DNA from: Deltaproteobacteria bacterium
Lineage (GTDB): Bacteria > CG2-30-53-67
Length of the DNA stretch: 64,000 nt
Assembly: GCA_013151235.1 (NCBI GenBank)
Contig: JAADIO010000035.1
Coordinates: forward strand, 1-64,000
Direction: 5' to 3'
The notes under the pieces were generated by a model, which was given only the letters and a program-made list of their open reading frames with translations, made no database searches and had not been told where the DNA came from. Positions 4,423-24,309 of the stretch are shown here, in pieces (positions within the stretch are counted from its first letter, which is position 1; each line of letters starts with the position of its first letter). Both the position numbers and the translations under genes were made by a program.

Positions 4423-6822
4423 TTACATCTCTTCGACGCGCTTCTTATAAAGCAGATGATACAACGTCCGCGAATAGATTTTCATCTTCCGTTTCTCGAT
4501 GTTGGTTACGGCATACCGCCAGAAGCCATAGAGCTTGGTCTGTTTCAGCAGTTTCTCGCTGTAGTGCCGCCAGGTGTATTTTTCCTCGATCCGTTGAATG
4601 GCATTGTTGGAGATATGATTCCAGGTCAGCGGACCCTCCCCTCCCTTCTTCAGGAAATCGATCAGTTGGTCCCGCAGGAGATCGTGTCGAGTCGGGTTGA
4701 TGAGGAAGCCATTCACTCCATTCCGAATGATCTCCGAGGGTCCGCCGAACTGGGTGGCAAAGACCGGCAATCCGCAGGACATCGCCTCCAGAACGGTCAG
4801 GCCAAACGCTTCGAAGAGGGCCGGCTGAACAAAAAAACCGCTGTGATCGGCGATAACCCGGTAAATCTCCCCCGTATCCTCCTTTTTAAGCTGCATCCCG
4901 ATCCATCGGATCTTTCCCTCCAGGTGATACTCTTCGATCAATCGGTGCATCCGGAGAACCTCTTCTTTTTCTTCCGGGTCGTCGGTGGCCTCGGGGTCGA
5001 TCTTCCCGGCAATAATGATCAGGTTGGCCCGGTCCTGAATTTCGGGATACTTTCCGAAACATTCCACAAGGCCGGTAACATTTTTGATCTTGTCGAGGCG
5101 AGCCATGGTAAAAATCGGTGTCTTCCCCGGGTCGTCAAGACATCCGAAGATCTCTTCCCCTTCCCGTTCAAAGATGAAGGAAGTGAGTTCACTACAGCGT
5201 TTCTTGTCACGCCGGTCTTTTTCGGAATAGGGATAGTAGACCGATTCATCCACACCGGGCGAAATGACATTGAATTTCGGGTGGAAGAGATTGATCCCTC
5301 CCAGCACCTGGCAGAAGCCCGGCATGGTGTAGTGCTGGTAGGACTCGTACTGCCCCATGACGGAGGCCGTTCCGGCGATCTCCTGGAAGGTGCTGGTAAT
5401 AATGAAGTCGGCCATGTTCATCGACAGCAGATCGGCGGTAAACTGAAGGGAAAAATGGTACTCCGGCTCCATCTCCTCCCAGTAGAGATCGGAGAAAAGG
5501 TATTTCGATTTCTCCAGGGCATGGGCGATATTGCACTGGATCACGCCGGTCTCCTCGGAGAGCAGGGAAGCGACGAGGTTCCCGTCGGAGTAGTTCCCGA
5601 TGATCAGGTCAGGGTGCCTCCCCAGCTCGACCTTCAATTCATCGAGGGCCTCGTAGGCGAACTGTTCCAGGTAGGGCCAGACCCAGAAACGGGAGATCCA
5701 GTAGGGGATGACATTTTTCTCCCGGTCACGGAAGGGAACCCGGAGAATCCAGCAGTTCCGGGTGTTTTTGATCTTCTCCAGCCGCTCGTGGCAGGTGGTA
5801 TTTTCACTCTCCGGGATGAGCCGGGTCACCACCATGATCTTCGGTTCAAAGTCGAGGCCGGAAAGGAGAAGGTTCTCCGCAAGGGCGGTCTCCAGGGCAT
5901 GAACCTGATCAAGGATGTAGACCACCTGCCCCCCCGTGTCGGGTTTGCCCAGGACATTTTCCTGCCCGAAAAAACCATGGGGGGAGATGATAGCGACTCG
6001 GGAGACCATGGGAATCCGGGAGATAAAACTCTCCAGCGCCAGACTGTCCGGCGCCTCAAAGAGATCCAGGAGAAGCTGCATCGATTCGAGGACCCGTTCC
6101 GGGGAATTGCCCCACCCCGGCTCAAAACCGAAGATCTGCAGTTTCTGCGTGACCTCGGCAAAGGAGAGCGCCCCATCCACCTCTTCCAGCCATGCCACGG
6201 CCCGGTCGAGCATATCGAGCAGTTGGTCCTCGTTCCGGATTTTCTCCCCGTTGACCAGGAGCTGTTTTCCCCCCAGGCAATGAATCTTCAAAAACTCAAA
6301 GAGTTTCCGGTGCCACGTATCCGGGTTCTGGAAGAGACTGCTCGACATGTGGCGATTCAGAAATTCGATCCCCTTGCCGACATTGCGTGGGTCCCGGATC
6401 AGGGGAGAATAGTCGTAAAAGGGGGTGAAGTCGATCTTCAGTTTCATGGGAGTGGCACCGTTTTCCTCCCGGATACAACTGTCCCGTAAATCGAGGAGTT
6501 CTCCGACGGAAATCTGCTCGGGTTCCCCGAACTCCGTGTCGGTATGGGAAAACTTATAGATTCGGTCCTTGCCCATCTGGTAGCGGTGGATAAGGACGGC
6601 AAATCCGTCAAAAAGGATCATCTCGGGGACCTTGCCTAAGAAGGAATCCAGGGACGACAAGTCCCGCAACGCTTTTCCCTTTCCCCGAAAATCCTCCCAG
6701 GCCAGAAGAAGGTCATTCCTCAGGAGGTACCGTTTTTCTCCCCGGAAGAGTTGATGGAGAAAGGCATGAAAATCCCGGACGGATTCCTCCGGAACCAGAT
6801 CAATCCATTGAGTTTTTCTCAT
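4423..6822 (-). CDS. susA: Sucrose synthase (GT4)
   Basis: 799 aa; SPHGFFGQENVLGKPDTGGQVVYILDQV, IIGNYSDGNLVA, AHALEKSKY, MARLDKIKN, QPALFEAFGLTVLEAM. Confidence 0.95.
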   Translation of the reverse strand: MRKTQWIDLVPEESVRDFHAFLHQLFRGEKRYLLRNDLLLAWEDFRGKGKALRDLSSLDSFLGKVPEMILFDGFAVLIHRYQMGKDRIYKFSHTDTEFGEPEQISVGELLDLRDSCIREENGATPMKLKIDFTPFYDYSPLIRDPRNVGKGIEFLNRHMSSSLFQNPDTWHRKLFEFLKIHCLGGKQLLVNGEKIRNEDQLLDMLDRAVAWLEEVDGALSFAEVTQKLQIFGFEPGWGNSPERVLESMQLLLDLFEAPDSLALESFISRIPMVSRVAIISPHGFFGQENVLGKPDTGGQVVYILDQVHALETALAENLLLSGLDFEPKIMVVTRLIPESENTTCHERLEKIKNTRNCWILRVPFRDREKNVIPYWISRFWVWPYLEQFAYEALDELKVELGRHPDLIIGNYSDGNLVASLLSEETGVIQCNIAHALEKSKYLFSDLYWEEMEPEYHFSLQFTADLLSMNMADFIITSTFQEIAGTASVMGQYESYQHYTMPGFCQVLGGINLFHPKFNVISPGVDESVYYPYSEKDRRDKKRCSELTSFIFEREGEEIFGCLDDPGKTPIFTMARLDKIKNVTGLVECFGKYPEIQDRANLIIIAGKIDPEATDDPEEKEEVLRMHRLIEEYHLEGKIRWIGMQLKKEDTGEIYRVIADHSGFFVQPALFEAFGLTVLEAMSCGLPVFATQFGGPSEIIRNGVNGFLINPTRHDLLRDQLIDFLKKGGEGPLTWNHISNNAIQRIEEKYTWRHYSEKLLKQTKLYGFWRYAVTNIEKRKMKIYSRTLYHLLYKKRVEEM

Positions 6823-9011
6823 CCCTGCATCTCCAGAAAACGGTAATTTTCAATCCCCTCGAGGATTCCCGCCGTAAAGCCGTCCCGGGAGAAATAGATA
6901 TTCCGGCTCCCCTTGAGGTGGTCCAGTTCATCACTGTGGTTCCCCACAACAATGGCCGGCATCTCCCCCCGCAACATCTCTTCATCATTGCCCGAGTCTC
7001 CGCAGACGAGAATATTCTTCAGGGGGGTATTCCATTTGTAGGCAAGATAACGGATCGCCTTCCCTTTCGAGGCACGGTAAGGCAGAATGTCGATAAACTG
7101 CCTATGGGAAAAGATCAGGTTGTAACGACACTTGTTTTCCACCAGCAGGGCATGGATCCGGGCCAGGGTATCGGACATATTCAGATGAGTTCCGTCGATG
7201 TAGTAACTCAGCTTGAACTGCCGCTGGGTCTCCCCTTCCTGAATCTCCAGGAAGTCGAACTCCGTTAAGAGCTGCTTGATCTTTTCCCGGTTCCAGCGAG
7301 CAGAGATGTGGCTCTCCCACCCCTTGTCGGGGACCAGGTCTGGACCATAGTAGATCTCCGCGCCGACGGAAGAGATGATCAGATCGGGTACGGGAACATC
7401 ATTCTCCTGCAGTACCTCCATGGCGGAATCAATGGTCCGGCCCGTGGCAATTCCGAAACCGACGCTTTCGTTATTCTTGTTCAGCCGTTCCAGGAGGACT
7501 TCCAGTGCCTCTTCGTTCCCGATGAGGGTATTATCAATATCGGAAATAATAAACTTGTTGACCCGGCTCATACGCCGTCCGAAAGCATCCGCCCCGGCCG
7601 GCTCGATCTTTTTTTCCTCTTCGCCGCCGCAGAGCGGGAGTACACCCTTCGTCAGATAGGTCTTGCAATGGGCATCCCAGGCATAATGCTTCCGGACGTT
7701 GTTGATCCCGTTCGTGGAGAATTTCTGCCACAGGTCGGGGTTGACGAGGATCTTCTTGATGGCCCGGGCAATCTCCTTGCCGTTCGTTACATCCACGAGG
7801 ATCCCGTTCCGGCAGTTTTTGATAATATCCCGGGGACCCCCGTCATCAGTCGCCACGATCGGAAGTCCGCAGGAGGCCGCCTCAAGGAGGGTCAAACCGA
7901 AGGGTTCCGTCAGTGCCGTATTGATAAAGATCCCCTTCTTGCCGGCGGCAATCCGGTAGAGTTCAGGAACCTCGTATTCGAAATCATGTTTCTTCGGAAT
8001 GGCCAGTTTGCCGTACAGATCGTACTTGTCCATGAGCAGAAGAATCTCCGTCAGGACCTCCCGTTCGTTCTCCTCCATCTTCGAAATATCCTTCCGGATC
8101 CCCGCAAAAACGGCTAGGTTCGCAAGGGCCTGCAACTCCTTGTTCATGCCGTAGGCGGAGATCAATCCGTCGATATTCTTCCGTTTTTCCGGACGGCTCA
8201 GGGCAAGAATCAGCGGTTTTTCAGGTTGAAGGAAGAAACGCTCCAGGTTCGACGAGATCGATACGATCGCCTGCTTATGGACTTCATCGACCTTCTCGTC
8301 GGAGAAAATATCGTCATAATAGGGATGGAATTTCGTCAGGTCGATCCCCGGCGGAATCACGCGATACCGGGGCAGTTCATGGTTTTCATAGAGGTCGTAC
8401 TGTACCTCCACCTCCTGGTGGGTCGAAGTGACCACAAGGTCAACATGTTTCAGGATCTCCTCTTCCACTGCGATCCGGTGATCGATCCGGAAACGCTTGT
8501 TGACGGTATCTTCACTCATTCCGCCCGCAAGAAGCCTTTCCTTCTTCGACCGGCCGAGGGAGTGGCCGGTGAAGACAAAGGGGAGCCCGAGAATGTGTGC
8601 AAGATCCATGGCGATCTTGCCCGCATCGGCGTAATGGCCGTGAATAATGTCGGGGAGCGCCCCTTCGCTCTTCAGGAAGCGTAGGGTCTTGTCCACATAT
8701 TCATCGAGGAAGGGCCAGAGAAGCTCTTTGCGGATGTACCGGGTCCCACCGCACTGGATGCGGACGATTCGTACATTCTCCGCCAACGGCTCGATGGGGC
8801 GGCTGTAATCGGGAGAGACACGCTTGTCCCGGATCAGGCGTGTAAATAGATCGACCTGCCGCACCCCCGGATGCTTTCCCAGCGCCCGGGCCAGTTCCAG
8901 GACATACTTGATCTGCCCCCCGGTATCGGCATCGCGGCCCATCTCCAGATTGTGTTCCCGAATCAGGCCATGCAGGCTGATCATCAGGATATGCTTCCCA
9001 TGCCGGCTCAT
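6819..9011 (-). CDS. sps: Sucrose-phosphate synthase with C-terminal HAD sucrose-phosphatase domain
   Basis: GRDADTGGQIKYVLELA, HGHYADAG, TGHSLG, EPFGLTLLEA; HAD motifs SDIDNTL, ATGR, SKG, GDSGND. Confidence 0.95.
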   Translation of the reverse strand: MSRHGKHILMISLHGLIREHNLEMGRDADTGGQIKYVLELARALGKHPGVRQVDLFTRLIRDKRVSPDYSRPIEPLAENVRIVRIQCGGTRYIRKELLWPFLDEYVDKTLRFLKSEGALPDIIHGHYADAGKIAMDLAHILGLPFVFTGHSLGRSKKERLLAGGMSEDTVNKRFRIDHRIAVEEEILKHVDLVVTSTHQEVEVQYDLYENHELPRYRVIPPGIDLTKFHPYYDDIFSDEKVDEVHKQAIVSISSNLERFFLQPEKPLILALSRPEKRKNIDGLISAYGMNKELQALANLAVFAGIRKDISKMEENEREVLTEILLLMDKYDLYGKLAIPKKHDFEYEVPELYRIAAGKKGIFINTALTEPFGLTLLEAASCGLPIVATDDGGPRDIIKNCRNGILVDVTNGKEIARAIKKILVNPDLWQKFSTNGINNVRKHYAWDAHCKTYLTKGVLPLCGGEEEKKIEPAGADAFGRRMSRVNKFIISDIDNTLIGNEEALEVLLERLNKNNESVGFGIATGRTIDSAMEVLQENDVPVPDLIISSVGAEIYYGPDLVPDKGWESHISARWNREKIKQLLTEFDFLEIQEGETQRQFKLSYYIDGTHLNMSDTLARIHALLVENKCRYNLIFSHRQFIDILPYRASKGKAIRYLAYKWNTPLKNILVCGDSGNDEEMLRGEMPAIVVGNHSDELDHLKGSRNIYFSRDGFTAGILEGIENYRFLEMQG

Positions 9012-9907
9012 CGTTTATCCGCCTCCTTCCATGTGAGATAGGGTCGATAAAATGCACCGTTATCCGGGACGGCGCCCGGCAGTCCGCAGACCGCGCCGGC
9101 GAACTCGGCGGCCCGATCGAGAATAAGCTCCGGCGCCCAGCCTCGCAGGATCCCCATCGCCAGGATCGCGGTATAGGCATCCCCCGCCCCCACGGTATCA
9201 ACCATGACCGGGACCCGCGCCGATCCCGTCCGAAAAGATTCGTCCCCATGATAGAGAGCGCTCCCCTTGGCCCCCCGGGTCAGGCAGACCCATTCCAGAC
9301 GGTAGCGTTCCATCATCTCTTTCACAAACAGATCGTCGTTTTCCTCCCCACCCAGCAGTCCACGACAGATCTTCAGTTCCTCATCGTTCAGTTTCACAAC
9401 ATGACAGGCTGCAAGAGAACGTTCAATCACTTCCCGGGAAAAGGTGTTCTTCCTCAGATTCATGTCGTACAAAAGAAGGGCGGAGCCGACCCGGTCCAAA
9501 ATGGCATGAAGCGTACTCCGGGAATGCGGATGCCGCTGCGCAAGGGTCCCGAAATAGATCAAAGCCGGTCCCTCGTCGAGGACACGGAGCAGCCTGTCCC
9601 CGGCCTCGATATGATCGTAGGCCACATCCTCCACGATGGTGAAATCAGGCACCCCCGCCGGATCCACCCTGACCCGTACCGTACCGCTCGGGTGGCGGGG
9701 ATCCCTCTGGAGCAGATCGGAAGTGATATGATTCCGCAGGAAAAACGCTTCGACGGCCCGTCCCCGCTCATCGTCACCAACCCGGCTCACCAGGCGGCTG
9801 TCGAAGCCGAAGGAATGGAGGTGAAAGACGAAATTGAAAGGCGCCCCTCCCAGCCGCTCGTACGCGGGGAAAATATCATAGAGGATCTCTCCGAAACTGA
9901 GAATCAT
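9008..9907 (-). CDS. PfkB-family carbohydrate kinase (probable fructokinase)
   Basis: FGEILYD, GGAPFN, DTVGAGDAY; ATGA-coupled to sps. Confidence 0.9.
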   Translation of the reverse strand: MILSFGEILYDIFPAYERLGGAPFNFVFHLHSFGFDSRLVSRVGDDERGRAVEAFFLRNHITSDLLQRDPRHPSGTVRVRVDPAGVPDFTIVEDVAYDHIEAGDRLLRVLDEGPALIYFGTLAQRHPHSRSTLHAILDRVGSALLLYDMNLRKNTFSREVIERSLAACHVVKLNDEELKICRGLLGGEENDDLFVKEMMERYRLEWVCLTRGAKGSALYHGDESFRTGSARVPVMVDTVGAGDAYTAILAMGILRGWAPELILDRAAEFAGAVCGLPGAVPDNGAFYRPYLTWKEADKR

Positions 9908-12328: not shown

Positions 12329-13633
12329 TCAACTTTTATTAGAAGAAGTTTCTCCCAGAAACTCGTTCACCCCCTTGATGGCGCAGAACTCCCCGCACAT
12401 GGAACAGACCGCCTCATCCTGCGGCGGCGAGGACTCCCGGATTTTCCGCGCATGTTCCGGGTCGAGGGAGAGACGGATCTGGGCATCCCAGTCGAGATCC
12501 CGCCGGGCGCGGGCCATCTCCCGGTCCCGTTCCATCGCCCCCGGGATCCCCTTGGCGATATCGGCGGCATGAGCGGCGATCTTCGCTGCGATCACCCCTT
12601 CCCGTACATCGCCGACCGTGGGAAGGCGGAGATGCTCCGCCGGTGTCACGTAGCAGAGGAAGTCGGCGCCAGCCGCCCCGGCGATCGCCCCGCCGATGGC
12701 GGAGGTAATGTGATCATAACCGGGGGCAATGTCGGTCACCAACGGCCCCAGCACATAAAAAGGGGCCCCGTCACAGAGTTCCTTCTCCAACTTGATATTC
12801 ATTTCCACCTGATTGATCGGGACATGCCCCGGCCCCTCGATCATCACCTGCACTCCCGCCTCCCGTGCCCGCTTCGTCAGCTCCCCCAGAACGATCAGTT
12901 CCTGGACCTGTCCCCGGTCGGTGGCGTCGGCCAGACACCCGGGACGCATCCCGTCCCCCAGGCTGAGACAGATATCGTAACGGACCGCGATCTCAAGGAG
13001 CCGGTCGAACTGTTCGTAGAGAGGATTCTCACGGCCGTTATGGATCATCCATTCCAGAAGGAAGGAGCCGCCGCGGCTTACCACGTTTAAGAGCCGCCCC
13101 TCCCGCCTCAGCCGCTCGATGGTCCCGAGGGTGACGCCGCAATGGACCGTCATGTAGTCCACCCCCTCCGCTCCCTGCCGCTCGATCACATCGAAGAAAT
13201 CCTCCGGGTCCATCCGCACGACCCCCTGCCGCTTCTCTACCGCATGCAGCGCCGCCTCGTAGATCGGAACCGTTCCGAGTGGAACGGCGACCTCCCGCAG
13301 GATCCGGCGGCGGATCCCCGGAAGATCACCGCCGGTGGAGAGGTCCATGATCGTGTCGGCCCCGGCGGCCACGGCGGCTCGGGCCTTTTCGATCTCTCCG
13401 TCGGCATCAAGATGATCCCTCGAGGTCCCGATATTGGCGTTGATCTTGGTCGAAAGCCCCTCTCCAATTCCGATGGGAATGCTCTCCCTCCGGTTCCGGT
13501 TCCGAAGGACCACCGCCCTCCCTTCCGCCACCTTCCGGGCCAGCGCCTCCGGCGGGATTCTCTCGTTCCGGGCCACCTGCCGGATCTCTTCGGTCACAAC
13601 ACCCTTGCAGGCCGATCTCATCTGCGTCATCAT
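12329..13633 (-). CDS. thiC: Phosphomethylpyrimidine synthase
   Basis: KINANIGTS, DTIMDLSTGG, VSRGGS, SLGDGMRPG, EGPGHVP, GYDHITSAIG, CSMCGEFC; lies in the thi operon. Confidence 0.93.
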   Translation of the reverse strand: MMTQMRSACKGVVTEEIRQVARNERIPPEALARKVAEGRAVVLRNRNRRESIPIGIGEGLSTKINANIGTSRDHLDADGEIEKARAAVAAGADTIMDLSTGGDLPGIRRRILREVAVPLGTVPIYEAALHAVEKRQGVVRMDPEDFFDVIERQGAEGVDYMTVHCGVTLGTIERLRREGRLLNVVSRGGSFLLEWMIHNGRENPLYEQFDRLLEIAVRYDICLSLGDGMRPGCLADATDRGQVQELIVLGELTKRAREAGVQVMIEGPGHVPINQVEMNIKLEKELCDGAPFYVLGPLVTDIAPGYDHITSAIGGAIAGAAGADFLCYVTPAEHLRLPTVGDVREGVIAAKIAAHAADIAKGIPGAMERDREMARARRDLDWDAQIRLSLDPEHARKIRESSPPQDEAVCSMCGEFCAIKGVNEFLGETSSNKS

Positions 13634-14283
13634 CTCATCCCTTCCCGGCGGGGAGTCCCGCCTCTTCGTTGAAGTTCCGTCATTATACCCGCAGCGGTTT
13701 CCCGGATGTCCCCACCGGCCAGAACGGCGGAGATCAGTGCAACTCCGAAAGCCCCGGCCCGAAGCACCGGCGCCACTTCCCGCTCCCCTATCCCGCCGAC
13801 GGCAAAGACGGGGACCGTCAATTCACGGCAAGCCGCATCAAGTCGGTCAAGCCCGAGAGGGGGGCCGTAAGACCTCTTTGAAGGAGTGTCGAAGACGGGT
13901 CCGAAGGTCACGAAATCGCCGCCTTCCGCCTCCGCCGCCTTCGCCTGCTCCAATGAGTGGGTGGAAACTCCGATCAGGGCATCCTTCCCCACGATCCGAC
14001 GGGCCTCCCGGGCGGAGTAACTCGACTGCCGCAGGTGAACCCCGTCGGCCTCGACAGCCGCGGCGATGTCGGCCCGATCATTGATCAAGAGCTTCGCCCC
14101 ATATTCCCGGGTCAGTACTCGGACCGTCATGCCCAGGTCATAGAGTTCCCGGTCGGTAAGGTCGCGCTCCCGAAGCTGCACCGCACGCACACCGCCTTCG
14201 AGGGCCTCCTCCAGGGCGGACAAAAGATCTCCGCCCGGAACCTGTTGACGGTCGGTGATAAGGTAGAGGGTGAAGTCGATCAT
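13630..14283 (-). CDS. thiE: Thiamine-phosphate synthase
   Basis: LYLITD, VQLRE, INDRAD, GVHL, GVSTHS, GPVFDTPSK, AVGGI. Confidence 0.93.
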   Translation of the reverse strand: MIDFTLYLITDRQQVPGGDLLSALEEALEGGVRAVQLRERDLTDRELYDLGMTVRVLTREYGAKLLINDRADIAAAVEADGVHLRQSSYSAREARRIVGKDALIGVSTHSLEQAKAAEAEGGDFVTFGPVFDTPSKRSYGPPLGLDRLDAACRELTVPVFAVGGIGEREVAPVLRAGAFGVALISAVLAGGDIRETAAGIMTELQRRGGTPRREGMR

Positions 14284-15056
14284 TATTGAATCATTCCCTC
14301 AATCGGGCTGCTCGCCGTGGCGTAGAGCTTCCTCGGGATACGACCCGCCCGGTAGGCCAGCCTTCCCGCCCGGACGGCATGGTTCATCGCTTCCGCCATG
14401 GCGATCGGGTCCCCGGCGCCTGCGATCCCCGTGTTCATCAGGACCGCCTCCGCCCCTAACTCCATCGCCACCACGGCGTCCGAGGCAGTCCCCACGCCGG
14501 CATCGACCACAACCGGCACCGACACCGATTCCATGAGTATCCTGAGATTGTAGGGATTGCAAATTCCGAGGCCCGAGCCGATCGGGGCGCCGAGCGGCAT
14601 GACCGCCGAGGCGCCGGCATCCTCCAGTTTCATCGCCAGGATCGGATCGTCCGTGGTATAGGGAAGGACAATGAACCCTTCTTTCACGAGAACCCGGGTC
14701 GCCTCGAGAAGCCCCTCGGTGTCGGGGAAAAGACTCTTGTGCTCTGCGATCACTTCGAGTTTGACCATGTCGGAAATCCCGGCCGCGCGGGCAAGGCGCG
14801 CCGTTCGAATCGCCTCGTCGGCCGTGCTGCACCCCGCCGTGTTCGGGAGGATCTTGTACTTCTTCGGATCAATGTGTTCCAGCAGGTTCTCCTTCGTCGG
14901 GTCGGTAATGTTGACCCGCCGTACCGAGACCGTCACCACGTCCGCCCCGGAGGCCTCCACCGCCCGGCGTGTCTCGTCGAAGTCTTTGTACTTCCCCGTC
15001 CCGATCCAGAGACGAGATCTAAACTCAATGCCGGCGATCATCAGTTTCTCTTCCAT
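14283..15056 (-). CDS. thiG: Thiazole synthase
   Basis: [39 protein letters not shown]. Confidence 0.96.
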
Positions 15057-15154: not shown

Positions 15155-15212
15155 GGGTCCTTTGTTCTTATCTTTTTATCCTGTAGATCCAGCCAGAAAG
15201 GTTATTGCTTTT

Positions 15213-15608
15213 CTCTGCGCTCTCCGCGTCTCTGCGGTGAATGCCTTTTGTCCTTGATCTTGTTTTTGCCTTTGATATTGTTTTTTTCATGATTGTCCTT
15301 GTGCATGCGGGATCATCCTCCCCCCACGAACCCCACCACCTCCAGCACATCCCCATCAGCCAGGGTCGTCTCCCCGTAGACCTCGGGGGGGATGATCTCC
15401 CGGTTCAGCTCCACCGCCACCCGGGCCGTGGAGAACCGCAATTCCTGCAATAATCCGGAGAGAGCCATCCCCTCCGCAATCTCCCGTTCTTCCCCGTTGA
15501 GTTTGATCTTCATCTCCGTGCCCTCAAGGTTTGTGTTTTTCGTTTTTGTCTTTAATCCGCCTTTTCCACATTTTGATTTTCTCTGCGCCCTCAGCGTCTC
15601 TGCGGTGA
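15213..15608. repeat. 28-bp direct repeat pair flanking thiS (15213-15240 and 15581-15608)
   Basis: CTCTGCGCTCTCCGCGTCTCTGCGGTGA versus CTCTGCGCCCTCAGCGTCTCTGCGGTGA (26/28). Confidence 0.8.
15313..15513 (-). CDS. thiS: Sulfur carrier protein
   Basis: 66 aa; [15 protein letters not shown]-terminal VGFVGGG. Confidence 0.95.
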
Positions 15609-15630: not shown

Positions 15631-17025
15631 TCAGAAGTGGACGTCTTCTTCCCCCCGGGCGACCCGATCGAGGCCCTTCTCTACTTCCCGCCGGAAGGCA
15701 TCATCTTTGAGCTGTGTTACGCGGGCGACAATCTGTTCGTGCACGGCGGCACGCGTCTTTTCCGTTCCGTGGTCCTTAAAATACTCCATGAGGGAGAAGA
15801 GTGCATTGGCCTCGCAAAAATCCCGGACCCTGCCCGACTCCGCAACGGCACGAAAGGCCTCCCCCGTCCGGCCGGAACGGTAGCAGGCAGTGCAGAGGCT
15901 CGGCTCCAGGCCGTGATCAAGGATGGCTGCAATCACCTCATCCAGGTTCCTGCCATCGCTCAGGGAAAACTGAGCGGTCCCCGTCTCCTCTTTCGCATGG
16001 GCATAGCCGCCGATGTCGGTCCGGGACCCGGCGCTGATCTGGGAAACGCCGATCCGGATCACCTCGTCCCGCAGTGCCGCACCTTCCCGGGTGGAAACGA
16101 CCACCCCGGCGTAAGGCACGGCCAACCGGAAGACCGCGACGATTTTTTTGAATGCTTCGTCGGAGACCGGACAGGGAACCGATTGAAGAGCGGAGCCTGC
16201 CGCCGGCTGGAGACGGGGGACCGAAACCGTGTGGGGACCGACGCCGAAGCGCTCTTCGAGATAGCGCGCATGGGCGATCAGGGCCAGGACCTCGAAACGA
16301 TCGTCGTAAAGGCCGAAAAGTGCCCCCATCCCGACATCGCCGAATCCCGCGGCCACGGCCCGGTCCATGACGGAGAGACGCCGTTCATAGTCGCTCTTCG
16401 GACCGGAGGGATGCATCCGGGCATAGGTTTCCGGGTGATAGGTCTCCTGAAAACATTGATAGACCCCCGCGCCAGCCCCCTTCAGGCGTCTGAAGTCATC
16501 TTCATCCATCGGGGCGGCGTTGACATGAACGATCCGGATCGGCGTTTCCCGGTAGATGGCCGAGACTGCGTCGCAGAGGTAATCGATGGAGGAGCCGCTC
16601 CCCTCCCCGGCCACGAGGAGAACCCGCCGGTAGCCTCCGTCATACAACGCCCGCGCCTCCTCCACGATCCCGGGGATCGGGAGGGTCTTCCGTTCCGCCT
16701 CCCTGTTCTCCCTCCGGAAGCCGCAGTAGAGACAGTTGTTGACACAGCGGTTGGAGATGTAGAGCGGTGCGAAGAGGACGATCCTTTTACCGAAAACCCG
16801 CTCCTTGACCTCCCGGGCCGTCTCGTAGAGGCGGTCGATCAGGGCGGGTTCTTCGATCGACAGCAGCACCGCTGCTTCCAAGAGGTCGAGCGGCTTTCCC
16901 TGCCGGGACTGCTCCAGAATGGTCTCCGCGAAAGCCCCGCCACGATGCCCCGGCTGCAAAAGGTTCTGAATTTCTTCTTCCGGAATCCGGAATGCACTCT
17001 TGACTTTCTCTTCCTCTGTTTTCAT
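15631..17025 (-). CDS. Radical SAM tyrosine lyase of the ThiH/HydG group with HydG-type architecture
   Basis: 464 aa; RIVLFAPLYISNRCVNNCLYC, FQETYH, GVGPHTVSVPRL, C-terminal CTAC-X22-C; ATG overlaps the thiF stop. Confidence 0.9.
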   Translation of the reverse strand: MKTEEEKVKSAFRIPEEEIQNLLQPGHRGGAFAETILEQSRQGKPLDLLEAAVLLSIEEPALIDRLYETAREVKERVFGKRIVLFAPLYISNRCVNNCLYCGFRRENREAERKTLPIPGIVEEARALYDGGYRRVLLVAGEGSGSSIDYLCDAVSAIYRETPIRIVHVNAAPMDEDDFRRLKGAGAGVYQCFQETYHPETYARMHPSGPKSDYERRLSVMDRAVAAGFGDVGMGALFGLYDDRFEVLALIAHARYLEERFGVGPHTVSVPRLQPAAGSALQSVPCPVSDEAFKKIVAVFRLAVPYAGVVVSTREGAALRDEVIRIGVSQISAGSRTDIGGYAHAKEETGTAQFSLSDGRNLDEVIAAILDHGLEPSLCTACYRSGRTGEAFRAVAESGRVRDFCEANALFSLMEYFKDHGTEKTRAAVHEQIVARVTQLKDDAFRREVEKGLDRVARGEEDVHF

Positions 17026-17822
17026 TTTTTCTCCAGTAATAAACGTAAAACAACATTCGCCTGGTGATGCGCCGCCACTCCCACCCGGGGGGACATGAGT
17101 CCCGTTCCCGGCGCAGCGGCCGTCGTCCCATCGCCGACGATGAAGCACCGTTTTCCGAAGGGAGTGATCCGGATTTCCCCAGAGGGACCGTACCCGGCGA
17201 GGCCCGAGGCGCAGACGACAAAGGTCCCGTCCATCTTCCGGAGGACGGTATTGATCATCATCGACTTGGCTTCGGCCGTATCGAAGGCCTCTACGATTAC
17301 GGAGACCCCGGCAAAGATCTCCGTCAGGTTCTCCGGGGTCAGACAGACTTCATGACTCGAAACTTCCACATAGGGGTTGATCCGATGGAGGTTCGCAGTC
17401 ATTGCCGCCGCTTTGGTCATCCCGATCTGGTCGGTGAAATACTGCTGACGGTTCAGGTTGGAAGGTTCCACCACATCGTAATCGGCAAGGATCAGCCGCC
17501 CGACGCCGAGCCGGGCAAGCGCCACCGCCACGGAGGAACCGAGCCCTCCCAGTCCGGCAATCCCGACGACCCCCCTTTTCACCTTATCATGGACACCGGG
17601 CGTATGACGGGCCGCCATGAGAATTTCCAGTTCTTCCCGGGAAGGAACCTCCCCGCGCCGGATCAGGACCACCTCATCCCCCTCTGAAAGAAGCCGGTCG
17701 TCGGACACGGGAAAACCGTTGAGAATGAGGAGATCGGCGTTCGGCTTTTCGGCTTCACGAAGGGCATGGAGAGTTAGTTGCTCCGGCAGGGCGAGAAACC
17801 TTTCATTGACTTTGATCCGCAT
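17022..17822 (-). CDS. thiF: ThiS adenylyltransferase with N-terminal ThiS-like domain
   Basis: N-terminal ubiquitin-like MRIKVNE...LIRRG; GIAGLGGLGS, DYDVVEPSNLNRQ, EAFD. Confidence 0.9.
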   Translation of the reverse strand: MRIKVNERFLALPEQLTLHALREAEKPNADLLILNGFPVSDDRLLSEGDEVVLIRRGEVPSREELEILMAARHTPGVHDKVKRGVVGIAGLGGLGSSVAVALARLGVGRLILADYDVVEPSNLNRQQYFTDQIGMTKAAAMTANLHRINPYVEVSSHEVCLTPENLTEIFAGVSVIVEAFDTAEAKSMMINTVLRKMDGTFVVCASGLAGYGPSGEIRITPFGKRCFIVGDGTTAAAPGTGLMSPRVGVAAHHQANVVLRLLLEKK

Positions 17823-17931
17823 GGCAGAACTCCACCCGCAGGATCGCAGCGGCAATCCAGGACCCACGAACCGGATGAGAGTAAAGAAGGAGGATTCGGA
17901 GGGAGCGGGGAGACCCCGCAAAAAAGACTCC

Positions 17932-18025
17932 AAACCGTTTCCCTACGCCGGCATGACCCGGATCAGGTTCGAAGGGTCGCCCGTCTGCACGGGACTCTCA
18001 GCCGTTCCGGCTCCCCTACGGTTTG
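17932..18025 (-). ncRNA. TPP riboswitch
   Basis: Minus strand: AAACCGUAGGGGAGCC...GGCUGAGA...GACCCUUCGAACCUGAUCCGGGUCAUGCCGGCGUAGGGAAACGGUUU; UGAGA, CCUGAU and GCGUAGGGA cores, P1 AAACCG/CGGUUU; upstream of thiF. Confidence 0.95.
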
Positions 18026-18033
18026 ATGATGGG

Positions 18034-18063
18034 ACTATAGCAGAAAGAAAGTATCCGTGTCAA
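18034..18063 (-). promoter_or_regulatory. Putative sigma70 promoter of the thi operon
   Basis: TTGACA-18 nt-TATAGT with TG extension; predicted +1 lies at the riboswitch 5' end. Confidence 0.7.
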
Positions 18064-23361: not shown

Positions 23362-24309
23362 ATGCAAATCATTCGCGACCTTGTCCAGCTGGAACATCGG
23401 TTTACTTATCCTGTCGTCACCCTCGGCAACTATGACGGGGTGCATCTGGGGCATCAGAAGATCTTTGAACAGGTGATGGCAAGAGCCCGGAAGATGTCCG
23501 GGACCTCAATCATCTTCACCTTCGAACCGCACCCTCTCAAAGTACTTTCCCCTTCCACGGCCCCACCGCTTCTGAATACCTTTCGACGGAAAATGGAACT
23601 CTTTGAGGCCTACGGCATCGAGGTCGTCATTTGCGCTGAATTCACCCGGGAATTAGCCGCCACACCACCGGAGGACTTCATCAAAAACATTCTTGTCGAT
23701 CAAGTCGGAGTAAAAGAAATTCTCGTGGGATATGACTACGCCTTCGGCCGGGGCAAACAGGGAAACACCGACGCCATGGCGGAGATGGGAAGACGTTACG
23801 GTTTTCAGGTAGAGGTCATCCCGGCATTTACCCTGCATGAAGAAGTGGTCAGTACGACTCGAATCCGGGAGCTCGTGCGCCGGGGAGAGATCCGGAAGGT
23901 CTGTACTCTCCTTGGACGTTGCTACGCCAGCGAGGGGATTGTCACCGCCGGCGACCACCGAGGCAAAGGCCTGGGCTTTCCCACGGCAAACCTCGAATCC
24001 CATAATGAAATCTTCCCGAAACGGGGGGTCTATGCCGTACAAGTCGAATACAAAGACCGTCTCTTTGACGGCGTGGCCAACATCGGGACCCACCCCACTT
24101 TCGGCGAAGGGCAGGTCACCATCGAGGTGCACATCTTTGATTTTCAGGAAGAGATCTATGGACAATTCGTCCGGGTTCTCTACCGGGAACGCCTTCGGGA
24201 TGAACAGACCTTCGGTAGCAAGGAAAGTCTGGTCCGCCAGATCCATCAGGATATCAAGAAGACCAGGGAGATCCTTCAACCACACGGAAAGAAAGAAACA
24301 TCCAAATGA
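23362..24309 (+). CDS. ribF: Bifunctional riboflavin kinase/FAD synthetase
   Basis: GNYDGVHLGHQ, FEPHP, GFPTAN, NIGTHPTF, EVHIFDF. Confidence 0.95.
   Translation: MQIIRDLVQLEHRFTYPVVTLGNYDGVHLGHQKIFEQVMARARKMSGTSIIFTFEPHPLKVLSPSTAPPLLNTFRRKMELFEAYGIEVVICAEFTRELAATPPEDFIKNILVDQVGVKEILVGYDYAFGRGKQGNTDAMAEMGRRYGFQVEVIPAFTLHEEVVSTTRIRELVRRGEIRKVCTLLGRCYASEGIVTAGDHRGKGLGFPTANLESHNEIFPKRGVYAVQVEYKDRLFDGVANIGTHPTFGEGQVTIEVHIFDFQEEIYGQFVRVLYRERLRDEQTFGSKESLVRQIHQDIKKTREILQPHGKKETSK

Follow-up and report, generated by a model that had tools for sequence, protein, structure and literature searches.

A radical SAM protein of HydG architecture encoded in a thiamine biosynthesis operon

Two enzymes, HydG and ThiH, are described as cleaving tyrosine to p-cresol and dehydroglycine (excerpts of the review PMC10114646). 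According to the same excerpts, the fragmentation of dehydroglycine in HydG is thought to proceed in a HydG-specific channel, with CO formation at a fifth iron; the step from dehydroglycine to CO and CN− is characterized as the remaining gray area, and removal of the C-terminal domain leaves HydG producing "mainly 2-iminoacetate". The fifth iron of HydG is, according to a review, bound by "a conserved histidine (265)". HydG is represented here by the family model TIGR03955 and the structures 4WCX (Thermoanaerobacter italicus) and 4RTB (Carboxydothermus hydrogenoformans), and ThiH, by TIGR02351, 7PD1 (Thermosinus carboxydivorans), and the Escherichia coli ThiGH. Here, we analyze a gene for a 464-amino acid (aa) radical S-adenosylmethionine (SAM) protein that combines features of both. 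The gene is located in a 64,000-nucleotide (nt) stretch of DNA from a Deltaproteobacteria bacterium (assembly GCA_013151235.1, contig JAADIO010000035.1, positions 1 to 64,000 of the forward strand; hereafter, the window). An earlier note, made from the sequence of the window alone, had proposed that an enzyme of HydG architecture fills the ThiH role at this locus and feeds ThiG.

Architecture of the protein and gene content of the genome

The gene belongs to an operon on the reverse strand with the order thiF, HydG-like gene, thiS, thiG, thiE, thiC, and then nadA (Table 1). An Rfam scan of the whole window returned a single family, the thiamine pyrophosphate (TPP) riboswitch. Window positions 15631–17148 on this strand form a single open frame starting from GTG; the ATG at 17025, which yields the 464-aa protein (15631–17025), was taken as the start because it forms an ATGA overlap with the thiF stop codon, has a GGAG 6 nt upstream, and corresponds to the starting methionine of the closest homolog, which is 81% identical. 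Thus, the coupling to thiF and the location upstream of thiS and thiG in a TPP riboswitch operon, as given in the earlier note, hold, and the GVGPHTVS and CTAC-X22-C motifs that it had pointed out in this protein map exactly.

The protein scores 449.5 bits with the NCBIfam HydG equivalog model TIGR03955, above the cut-off of 312.15. HydG sequences from known structures align with it in full length (4wcx, residues 13–464, 426.8 bits; 4rtb, residues 35–462, 406.4 bits), whereas the alignment with the ThiH chain 7pd1 (377 residues, 213.1 bits) ends at residue 375. Canonical ThiH had been described in the earlier note as a protein of about 370 aa without the C-terminal extension, in agreement with the extent of the latter alignment and with the 364 positions of TIGR02351. 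The AlphaFold2 (AF2) model of the 464-aa protein, built with 15 subfamily sequences, has a mean predicted local distance difference test value of 85.9 and a predicted template modeling (TM) score of 0.90, and in a Foldseek comparison, this model matches 4wcx_A with a TM score of 0.92 over 457 columns, compared to 0.70 for ThiH. Together, the full-length alignments and the structural match indicate that the predicted architecture is that of HydG, including the C-terminal domain.

Like HydG, the protein combines the characteristic length, radical SAM barrel, BATS domain and C-terminal domain with the CX2CX22C motif, the GPHT histidine, and most of the residues that are invariant specifically in HydG. 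Unlike HydG, it is encoded in a TPP-controlled thiamine operon and shows no co-occurrence with HydA, HydE, or HydF (see below). The resemblance to ThiH consists in the location beside thiS and thiG, the TPP control, the core residues, and the status of the only candidate source of dehydroglycine; unlike ThiH, the protein is about 90 residues longer, contains an extra Fe-S domain, and falls below the ThiH cut-off.

The window comes from a 2.62 Mb assembly of 73 contigs that is 99.25% complete, and in this genome, the gene is the sole HydG/ThiH homolog. The HydE and HydF profiles produced no match over the cut-off, and there was no match at all for Fe_hyd_lg_C, the catalytic domain of [FeFe] hydrogenases, that is, no HydA. 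Hence, the absence of hydA, hydE, and hydF that had been noted for the window extends to the entire genome. Neither ThiO nor a short ThiH was found in this genome, and ThiG has a single match, the operon neighbor. ThiG without a source of dehydroglycine makes no thiazole. Because the genome encodes ThiG while lacking ThiO and any other ThiH/HydG homolog, the HydG-like gene is the only candidate dehydroglycine source for the single ThiG. The genome search called for in the earlier note, for hydA/E/F, another thiH or thiO, thus came back empty on all counts.

A thiamine-linked subfamily and its relation to ThiH and HydG

The first survey included 41 genomes, namely, that of the window, its relatives, and a spread of others. 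All nine genomes of the family to which the window belongs carry the gene over the HydG cut-off, and HydA or HydF was detected in none of the nine. In the eight relatives, the gene invariably adjoins thiF, thiS, thiG, thiE, or thiC; neighbors were called by tblastn, for which the Thi proteins of the window and the hyd cluster L113 served as references. Only 14 genomes make up the GTDB phylum of the window, and in the sister family within the same class (f2; G009–G013), none of the five genomes contains a ThiH/HydG homolog at E ≤ 1e-30.

We further compiled 102 loci which, together with the window, gave 99 distinct homologs. Of these, 61 have HydE, HydF, or HydA neighbors (among these, L067 also has a ThiE-like match, 7 kb away), 17 long forms have thi neighbors only (16 intact genes and the split L123), another 17 have neither, and four are short ThiH. 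TPP riboswitches were detected in 9 of the 12 other thi-context loci that were scanned, and in three of these (L036, L040, and L070), the riboswitch directly precedes the HydG-like gene. When ten further thi-context proteins were compared to the family models, all passed the TIGR03955 cut-off (392–465 bits) and failed that of TIGR02351 (286–335 bits). In L123 (G004:C30), a member of the family of the window, the gene lies in two frames (contig positions 24027–24386 and 24400–25353), which reflects either a frameshift or an assembly error.

The alignment of these proteins reveals extensive conservation of the HydG features in the thiamine-linked forms. In the 61 hyd-linked proteins, 135 columns reach a conservation of 95% or more; the 16 thi-linked ones retain 73 of these columns without exception, including the radical SAM cysteines, H265, C378, C381, C404, and many residues that are absent from ThiH. 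The radical SAM cysteines C94, C98, and C101 are invariant in all 16 thi-context, 61 hyd-context, and four ThiH rows. The three auxiliary cysteines are kept in 16/16 thi-context rows, and H265 is a histidine in 61/61 hyd-context and 16/16 thi-context rows, compared to I, V, or W in the four ThiH; H205 and H252, the remaining invariant histidines, occur in ThiH as well. At least 19 HydG-specific invariant residues are retained, including R81, N97, R134, Y158, D230, T266, S328, Q329, R383, R386, F391, and E414, and the tyrosine-lyase core common to both long types and ThiH includes Q193, E194, Y196, H205, K210, R271, R300, R313, E314, and R319. Counting along the 480 residues of the 4wcx chain puts the GPHT histidine at position 279, as expected with a 14-residue tag; given this offset and the conservation pattern, His265 is presumed, on good grounds, to correspond to the histidine ligand of the dangler iron in HydG.

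Against this background, the differences are few. H167 and V188 are present in 16/16 thi-context rows, as opposed to N and T in 61/61 hyd-context rows. In a larger alignment (42 thi-type, 51 hyd-type, and 16 ThiH rows), only five columns conserved at 80% or more within both long groups differ consistently between them: 165 (I in the thi-type, R in the hyd-type), 167 (H in 42/42, or 100%, versus N in 51/51, or 100%), 188 (V, 98%, versus T, 98%), 309 (V versus I), and 377 (L versus F). ThiH has S at 165, S, A, or G at 167, and G at 188, so that the thi-type differs from ThiH at these positions as well. In addition, M392 and K396, invariant in the hyd-type, vary in the thi-type, with R and E, respectively, in the window protein. 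The AF2 model contains strands at residues 165–169, 189–193, 264–268, and 307–310, which would place positions 165, 188, 265, and 306–309 at the N-terminal ends of barrel strands; the published position of the C-terminal domain, combined with these predicted strands, suggests that the barrel end carrying H265 faces the auxiliary cluster.

Beyond these sets, the x-H-V signature at 165/167/188 was found in 110 of the 120 nearest cluster representatives at 90% identity, and all 110 signature-bearing homologs keep H265 and the three auxiliary cysteines. No truncated thi-type form was seen among the full-length hits. The subfamily spans several phyla. Clustering at 50% identity leaves about four of its representatives in the best 150 (P0123 and P0128 as well as P0141 and P0228, both of which are partial), and P0125 shows a mixed form, R-H-V. 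Many other long ThiH/HydG-family representatives in this collection (P0147–P0256) keep the C-terminal cysteines while replacing the HydG histidine (with R, T, E, or S) and the channel residues, which suggests the existence of further uncharacterized subfamilies. Several proteins of 800–1100 aa (P0122, P0124, P0126, P0130, and P0158) have a C-terminal half that is a true-type HydG and are, presumably, fusions; some of the HydG-containing proteins of this size show a second, weak profile match in the N-terminal half.

The distribution of the thi-type genes relative to ThiH and HydG was traced in a sample of 301 genomes from the phylum of G056, a metagenome-assembled genome (MAG) labeled "Deltaproteobacteria", in which kin are not independent observations and for which genome quality was not reported; other phylum-level surveys covered 14, 6, 3, and 9 genomes (centered on G000, G020, G038, and G035, respectively). 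In the 301-genome sample, the subfamily profile matches 102 genomes at E ≤ 1e-40, of which the best 30 were inspected for the signature and the neighbors, with the lower ranks classed by score only. Of these best 30 of 102, 20 carry I-H-V (in one case, I-H-L) and ten carry R-N-T. Among the thi-type copies, 19 of the 20 adjoin thiS/thiG, and the remaining one is at a contig end, whereas nine of the ten R-N-T copies adjoin HydE, HydF, or HydA. All 21 matches of at least 600 bits were among those inspected, and one of these, at 604.9 bits, is R-N-T. The bit score alone was tried and dropped as a classifier: with the A1 profile, R-N-T proteins reach 673.7 and 604.9 bits, and because of these high scores, the classes rest on the signature and the neighbors.

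A short-ThiH-level match, defined as 238–305 bits and ending near profile position 360, was found in 0/20 thi-type carriers versus 61/281 other genomes, and HydA, in 0/20 versus 75/281. The 41-genome survey gives the same picture, with no short-ThiH-level match in any of the 11 thi-type carriers and four genomes with such a match (G017, G021, G022, and G040), all of which lack the thi-type; HydA was also missing in five further carrier genomes (0/5). A second long copy is present in 7 of the 20 carriers, in all cases, R-N-T and beside a HydE-like gene. In another small phylum, all three genomes keep both a thi-context copy (R-H-V, beside thiS, thiG, thiE, and thiC) and an R-N-T copy; therefore, the two forms are not interchangeable. 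The consistent pattern is that the thi-type replaces ThiH rather than HydG.

The seven second copies (L174–L180, in G105, G115, G140, G240, G180, G317, and G079) are of interest in their own right: these R-N-T HydG genes lie beside a HydE-like gene in genomes without a detectable [FeFe]-hydrogenase catalytic domain at E ≤ 1e-20. HydE–HydG pairs whose flanks contain neither HydA nor HydF were also observed in the Scalindua loci L039, L041, L043, L053, and L064. Such pairs may serve a target other than HydA, or else, the assemblies may be incomplete.

NCBI names members of the subfamily HydG, for example, those from Moorella glycerini, M. humiferrea, Thermanaeromonas, and Nitrospirota and Deltaproteobacteria MAGs, whereas in JGI and UniRef, members are named 2-iminoacetate synthase. 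All 11 thi-context proteins tested, the window protein included, pass the cut-off of the HydG model, which assigns the name '[FeFe] hydrogenase maturase HydG'. Because the subfamily passes this cut-off and public records denote its members HydG, surveys in which HydG serves to mark [FeFe]-hydrogenase capacity would overcount, and in thiamine pathway reconstructions, ThiH would be scored, incorrectly, as lacking in MAGs labeled Nitrospirota, Deltaproteobacteria, and Thermodesulfobacteriota and in Moorella and Thermanaeromonas. No report of a HydG-type enzyme in a thiamine operon was found in the literature outside subscription papers and supplements, which lay beyond the search. In particular, the accessible parts of PMC3226654, PMC3543383, PMC9046217, PMC10114646, PMC8162317, PMC8855341, and PMC9147846 contain no account of such an enzyme; in a paper on nutrition, it is only speculated that hydE/hydG might stand in for thiH. 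Thus, this is, apparently, a widespread thiamine-linked subfamily that is mislabeled as HydG in databases and has not been described.

Phylogeny and proposed role

In three phylogenetic trees, a long, well-supported branch parts all long forms from ThiH. The position of the thi-type among the long forms varies. In a quick posterior mean site frequency (PMSF) tree of 70 rows, the thi-context rows belong to a basal unresolved set; in a quick PMSF tree of 88 rows, 26 thi-type rows form a clade (98 in the Shimodaira-Hasegawa-like approximate likelihood ratio test) that is nested with five hyd rows from Bacillota; and in an IQ-TREE analysis of 44 rows (LG+F+G4), ThiH attaches inside the thi-type. 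The approximately unbiased (AU) test on the 44 rows does not reject the monophyly of the thi-type (p = 0.267) or any of the placements of the ThiH root, namely, inside the thi-type (0.742), between two sister clades (0.316), or inside the hyd-type (0.318). Parsimony polarity from ThiH at the five discriminating columns gives no direction, as the ThiH states at 165, 167, and 188 match neither group. A firm claim that the thi-type is intermediate or derived was dropped, given that no root placement is rejected by the AU tests.

Thus, of the ThiH/HydG phylogeny that the earlier note had suggested, the split of ThiH from all long forms stands, whereas the AU tests leave the root among the long forms undecided. 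That note had also considered that the gene might belong to an already characterized clade of long ThiH: a large clade of long, thiamine-linked forms does include the gene, but the literature searches turned up no characterization of it. An evolutionary intermediate, one of three variants offered in the earlier note next to a dual-function enzyme and an enzyme with a repurposed auxiliary cluster, is possible, as are the other two. A tentative and rather doubtful scenario is that the thi-type is the ancestral state, that is, a ThiH with an auxiliary [4Fe-4S]/His site that handled dehydroglycine for ThiG and was later recruited, via the R/N/T changes, to supply the H-cluster with CO and CN−; in that case, the auxiliary site of the thi-type would itself serve in catalysis or in substrate handling.

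Comparison of genomes and sequences makes it likely that the gene encodes the dehydroglycine-forming tyrosine lyase of the operon, that is, a functional ThiH on a HydG scaffold. Every genomic test of this core proposal of the earlier note is in agreement with it: the operon context, the sole homolog in the genome, the conservation in 9/9 genomes of the family, and the lack of a short ThiH or HydA in the 20 carriers. Under this proposal, the enzyme would convert tyrosine to p-cresol and dehydroglycine (2-iminoacetate) by radical SAM chemistry, and ThiG would use dehydroglycine, together with the ThiS thiocarboxylate and 1-deoxy-D-xylulose 5-phosphate, for the synthesis of the thiazole. The replacement of R, N, and T by I165, H167, and V188 might alter the channel such that dehydroglycine survives and is not broken down to CN− and CO. 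The auxiliary cluster would have a role other than the building of the Fe(CO)2(CN) synthon; holding and passing on dehydroglycine, gating of its transfer, electron relay, or a structural function are guesses. Judging from the conservation, selection clearly appears to maintain the auxiliary cluster, and the strict conservation of its ligands together with the new invariant H167 argues that the second site still does something. The engineered HydG lacking the C-terminal domain offers a parallel, as it demonstrates the capacity of a HydG barrel for dehydroglycine synthesis (excerpts of PMC10114646); unlike that truncated form, the natural protein keeps the domain and all the ligands.

Several observations weigh against this interpretation. 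The protein scores only 306.1 bits with the ThiH equivalog TIGR02351, for which the cut-off is 380. Every HydG-specific cluster ligand is kept, including the fifth-iron histidine, without an obvious use in plain dehydroglycine synthesis, and the channel-defining residues 85 and 192 are both Phe, as in HydG. The genome encodes large subunits of [NiFe] hydrogenases, so that a consumer of CO and CN− could be at hand. In the published HydG structures, the C-terminal domain is at the barrel's bottom, the same place that has been proposed for the exit of dehydroglycine from ThiH towards ThiG; if the extra domain sits at this exit, the access of ThiG to the product remains a problem. Finally, the case for the ThiH role is wholly comparative, and the limits of the genome sample and of the score-based classes given above apply to it. 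The predicted complex of the HydG-like protein with ThiG (alignments A1 and A2; score 0.00, mark 0.32) weighs neither for nor against binding.

These points bear on an alternative in which the enzyme still splits dehydroglycine at the auxiliary cluster and provides another metallocofactor, such as that of the [NiFe] hydrogenases, or another acceptor with CO, CN−, or both, or with an Fe-carbonyl-cyanide unit, instead of or besides serving ThiG. The invariance of the auxiliary cysteines and His265 throughout the thi-context and signature-bearing proteins, the retained HydG-specific residues, and the [NiFe] hydrogenases of this genome would fit such an activity. It nevertheless appears unlikely: the gene is under TPP riboswitch control and translationally coupled within thiF-thiS-thiG, with the riboswitch directly before it in three other lineages; without this enzyme, the single ThiG would have no source of dehydroglycine; R165, N167, and T188 are replaced and M392 and K396 are unconstrained; and in genomes with a HydE partner, this partner has an R-N-T copy of its own.

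Still less probable is a ThiH with a functionless, relic C-terminal domain that is kept only for the fold. The freedom of M392 and K396 to vary is compatible with a relic, and so is the production of dehydroglycine by HydG without this domain that is mentioned in the review excerpts. However, His265, which is not a ligand of the auxiliary cluster itself, and many surrounding residues are invariant across several phyla; the subfamily gained the invariant H167 and V188 at the same barrel end as His265, which the excerpts place against the C-terminal domain; and truncated thi-type forms are missing among the full-length hits. An ordinary HydG maturase, with HydA, HydE, and HydF missed through incomplete assembly or divergence and an incidental position among the thi genes, would explain the score over the HydG cut-off and the HydG name of close relatives in public records, but is extremely improbable and already contradicted by the 99.25% completeness of the genome, the like absence of partners across the family and the other carriers, the detection of HydA in 75/281 other genomes as a working positive control, and the association of the signature with thi rather than hyd neighbors.

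With the HydG-scaffold ThiH as the preferred interpretation, the two long forms would be natural counterparts that share the scaffold and the cluster ligands and show only five consistent differences, three of these at the end of the barrel that adjoins the auxiliary cluster; comparison of the two bears on the formation of CO and CN−. The subfamily is also the obvious candidate for a link between thiamine synthesis and H-cluster maturation, in either direction.

Features of the operon and neighboring genes

Table 1. Features of the thiamine operon in the window and of the HydG-like protein
Feature	Window positions	Strand	Support
Sigma-70-like promoter TTGACA-18-TATAGT, just upstream of the riboswitch	18034..18063	(-)	11/12 hexamer matches, TG before the -10; consensus match only
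TPP riboswitch aptamer RF00059	17922..18027	(-)	77.9 bits, gathering score 54.3; full model 1-105
thiF, ThiS adenylyltransferase	17022..17933	(-)	NF006395, 277.8 bits (cut-off 159); PF00899, residues 115-302
Predicted thiamine-linked HydG-architecture radical SAM tyrosine lyase, 464 aa	15631..17025	(-)	TIGR03955, TIGR02351, 4wcx, AF2, Foldseek
Radical SAM cluster motif C94-X3-C98-X2-C101 (CVNNCLYC from residue 94)	16723..16746	(-)	Translation and alignment
Subfamily signature I165, H167 ... V188 (true HydG: R, N, T)	16462..16533	(-)	Alignment; N-terminal ends of two predicted barrel strands
His265 in GPHT (GVGPHTVS from residue 261)	16231..16233	(-)	Sole HydG-specific invariant histidine
Auxiliary-cluster motif C378-X2-C381-X22-C404 (CTAC at 378-381)	15814..15894	(-)	Translation and alignment
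Dispersed short repeat, copy 1, between the HydG-like gene and thiS	15577..15607	(-)	Repeat search
thiS, sulfur carrier	15313..15513	(-)	TIGR01683, 73 bits (cut-off 37.45)
Dispersed short repeat, copy 2, in the thiS-thiG gap	15209..15239	(-)	Repeat search
thiG, thiazole synthase	14283..15056	(-)	PF05690, 367.5 bits; only copy in the genome
thiE, thiamine phosphate synthase	13630..14283	(-)	TIGR00693, 191.2 bits (cut-off 145.1)
thiC, phosphomethylpyrimidine synthase	12329..13633	(-)	NF009895, 662.3 bits (cut-off 410)

The listed TTG start of thiF runs 12 nt into the riboswitch aptamer and, therefore, the actual start of this gene is probably farther downstream. The ThiF protein contains an N-terminal ThiS-like domain (PF14453, residues 38–94) besides the ThiS encoded by the separate thiS gene.

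The operon includes two unusually long gaps, of 117 nt between the HydG-like gene and thiS and of 256 nt between thiS and thiG, and each contains a copy of the 31-nt repeat CACCGCAGAGACGCNGAGNGCGCAGAGAAAA. The repeat is present in two copies in the window versus none in shuffled sequences, and its 27-nt core has nine copies in the genome at two or fewer mismatches versus none for a reversed control pattern; it looks like a dispersed repetitive extragenic palindromic (REP)-like element.

Upstream of the thi operon, in the opposite orientation, lies a gene for a protein with a diacylglycerol kinase domain. Elsewhere in the window (4423–9907, reverse strand), there is a sucrose gene cluster that encodes a sucrose synthase of 799 aa, a 730-aa fusion of sucrose-phosphate synthase and phosphatase, and a kinase of the PfkB family.

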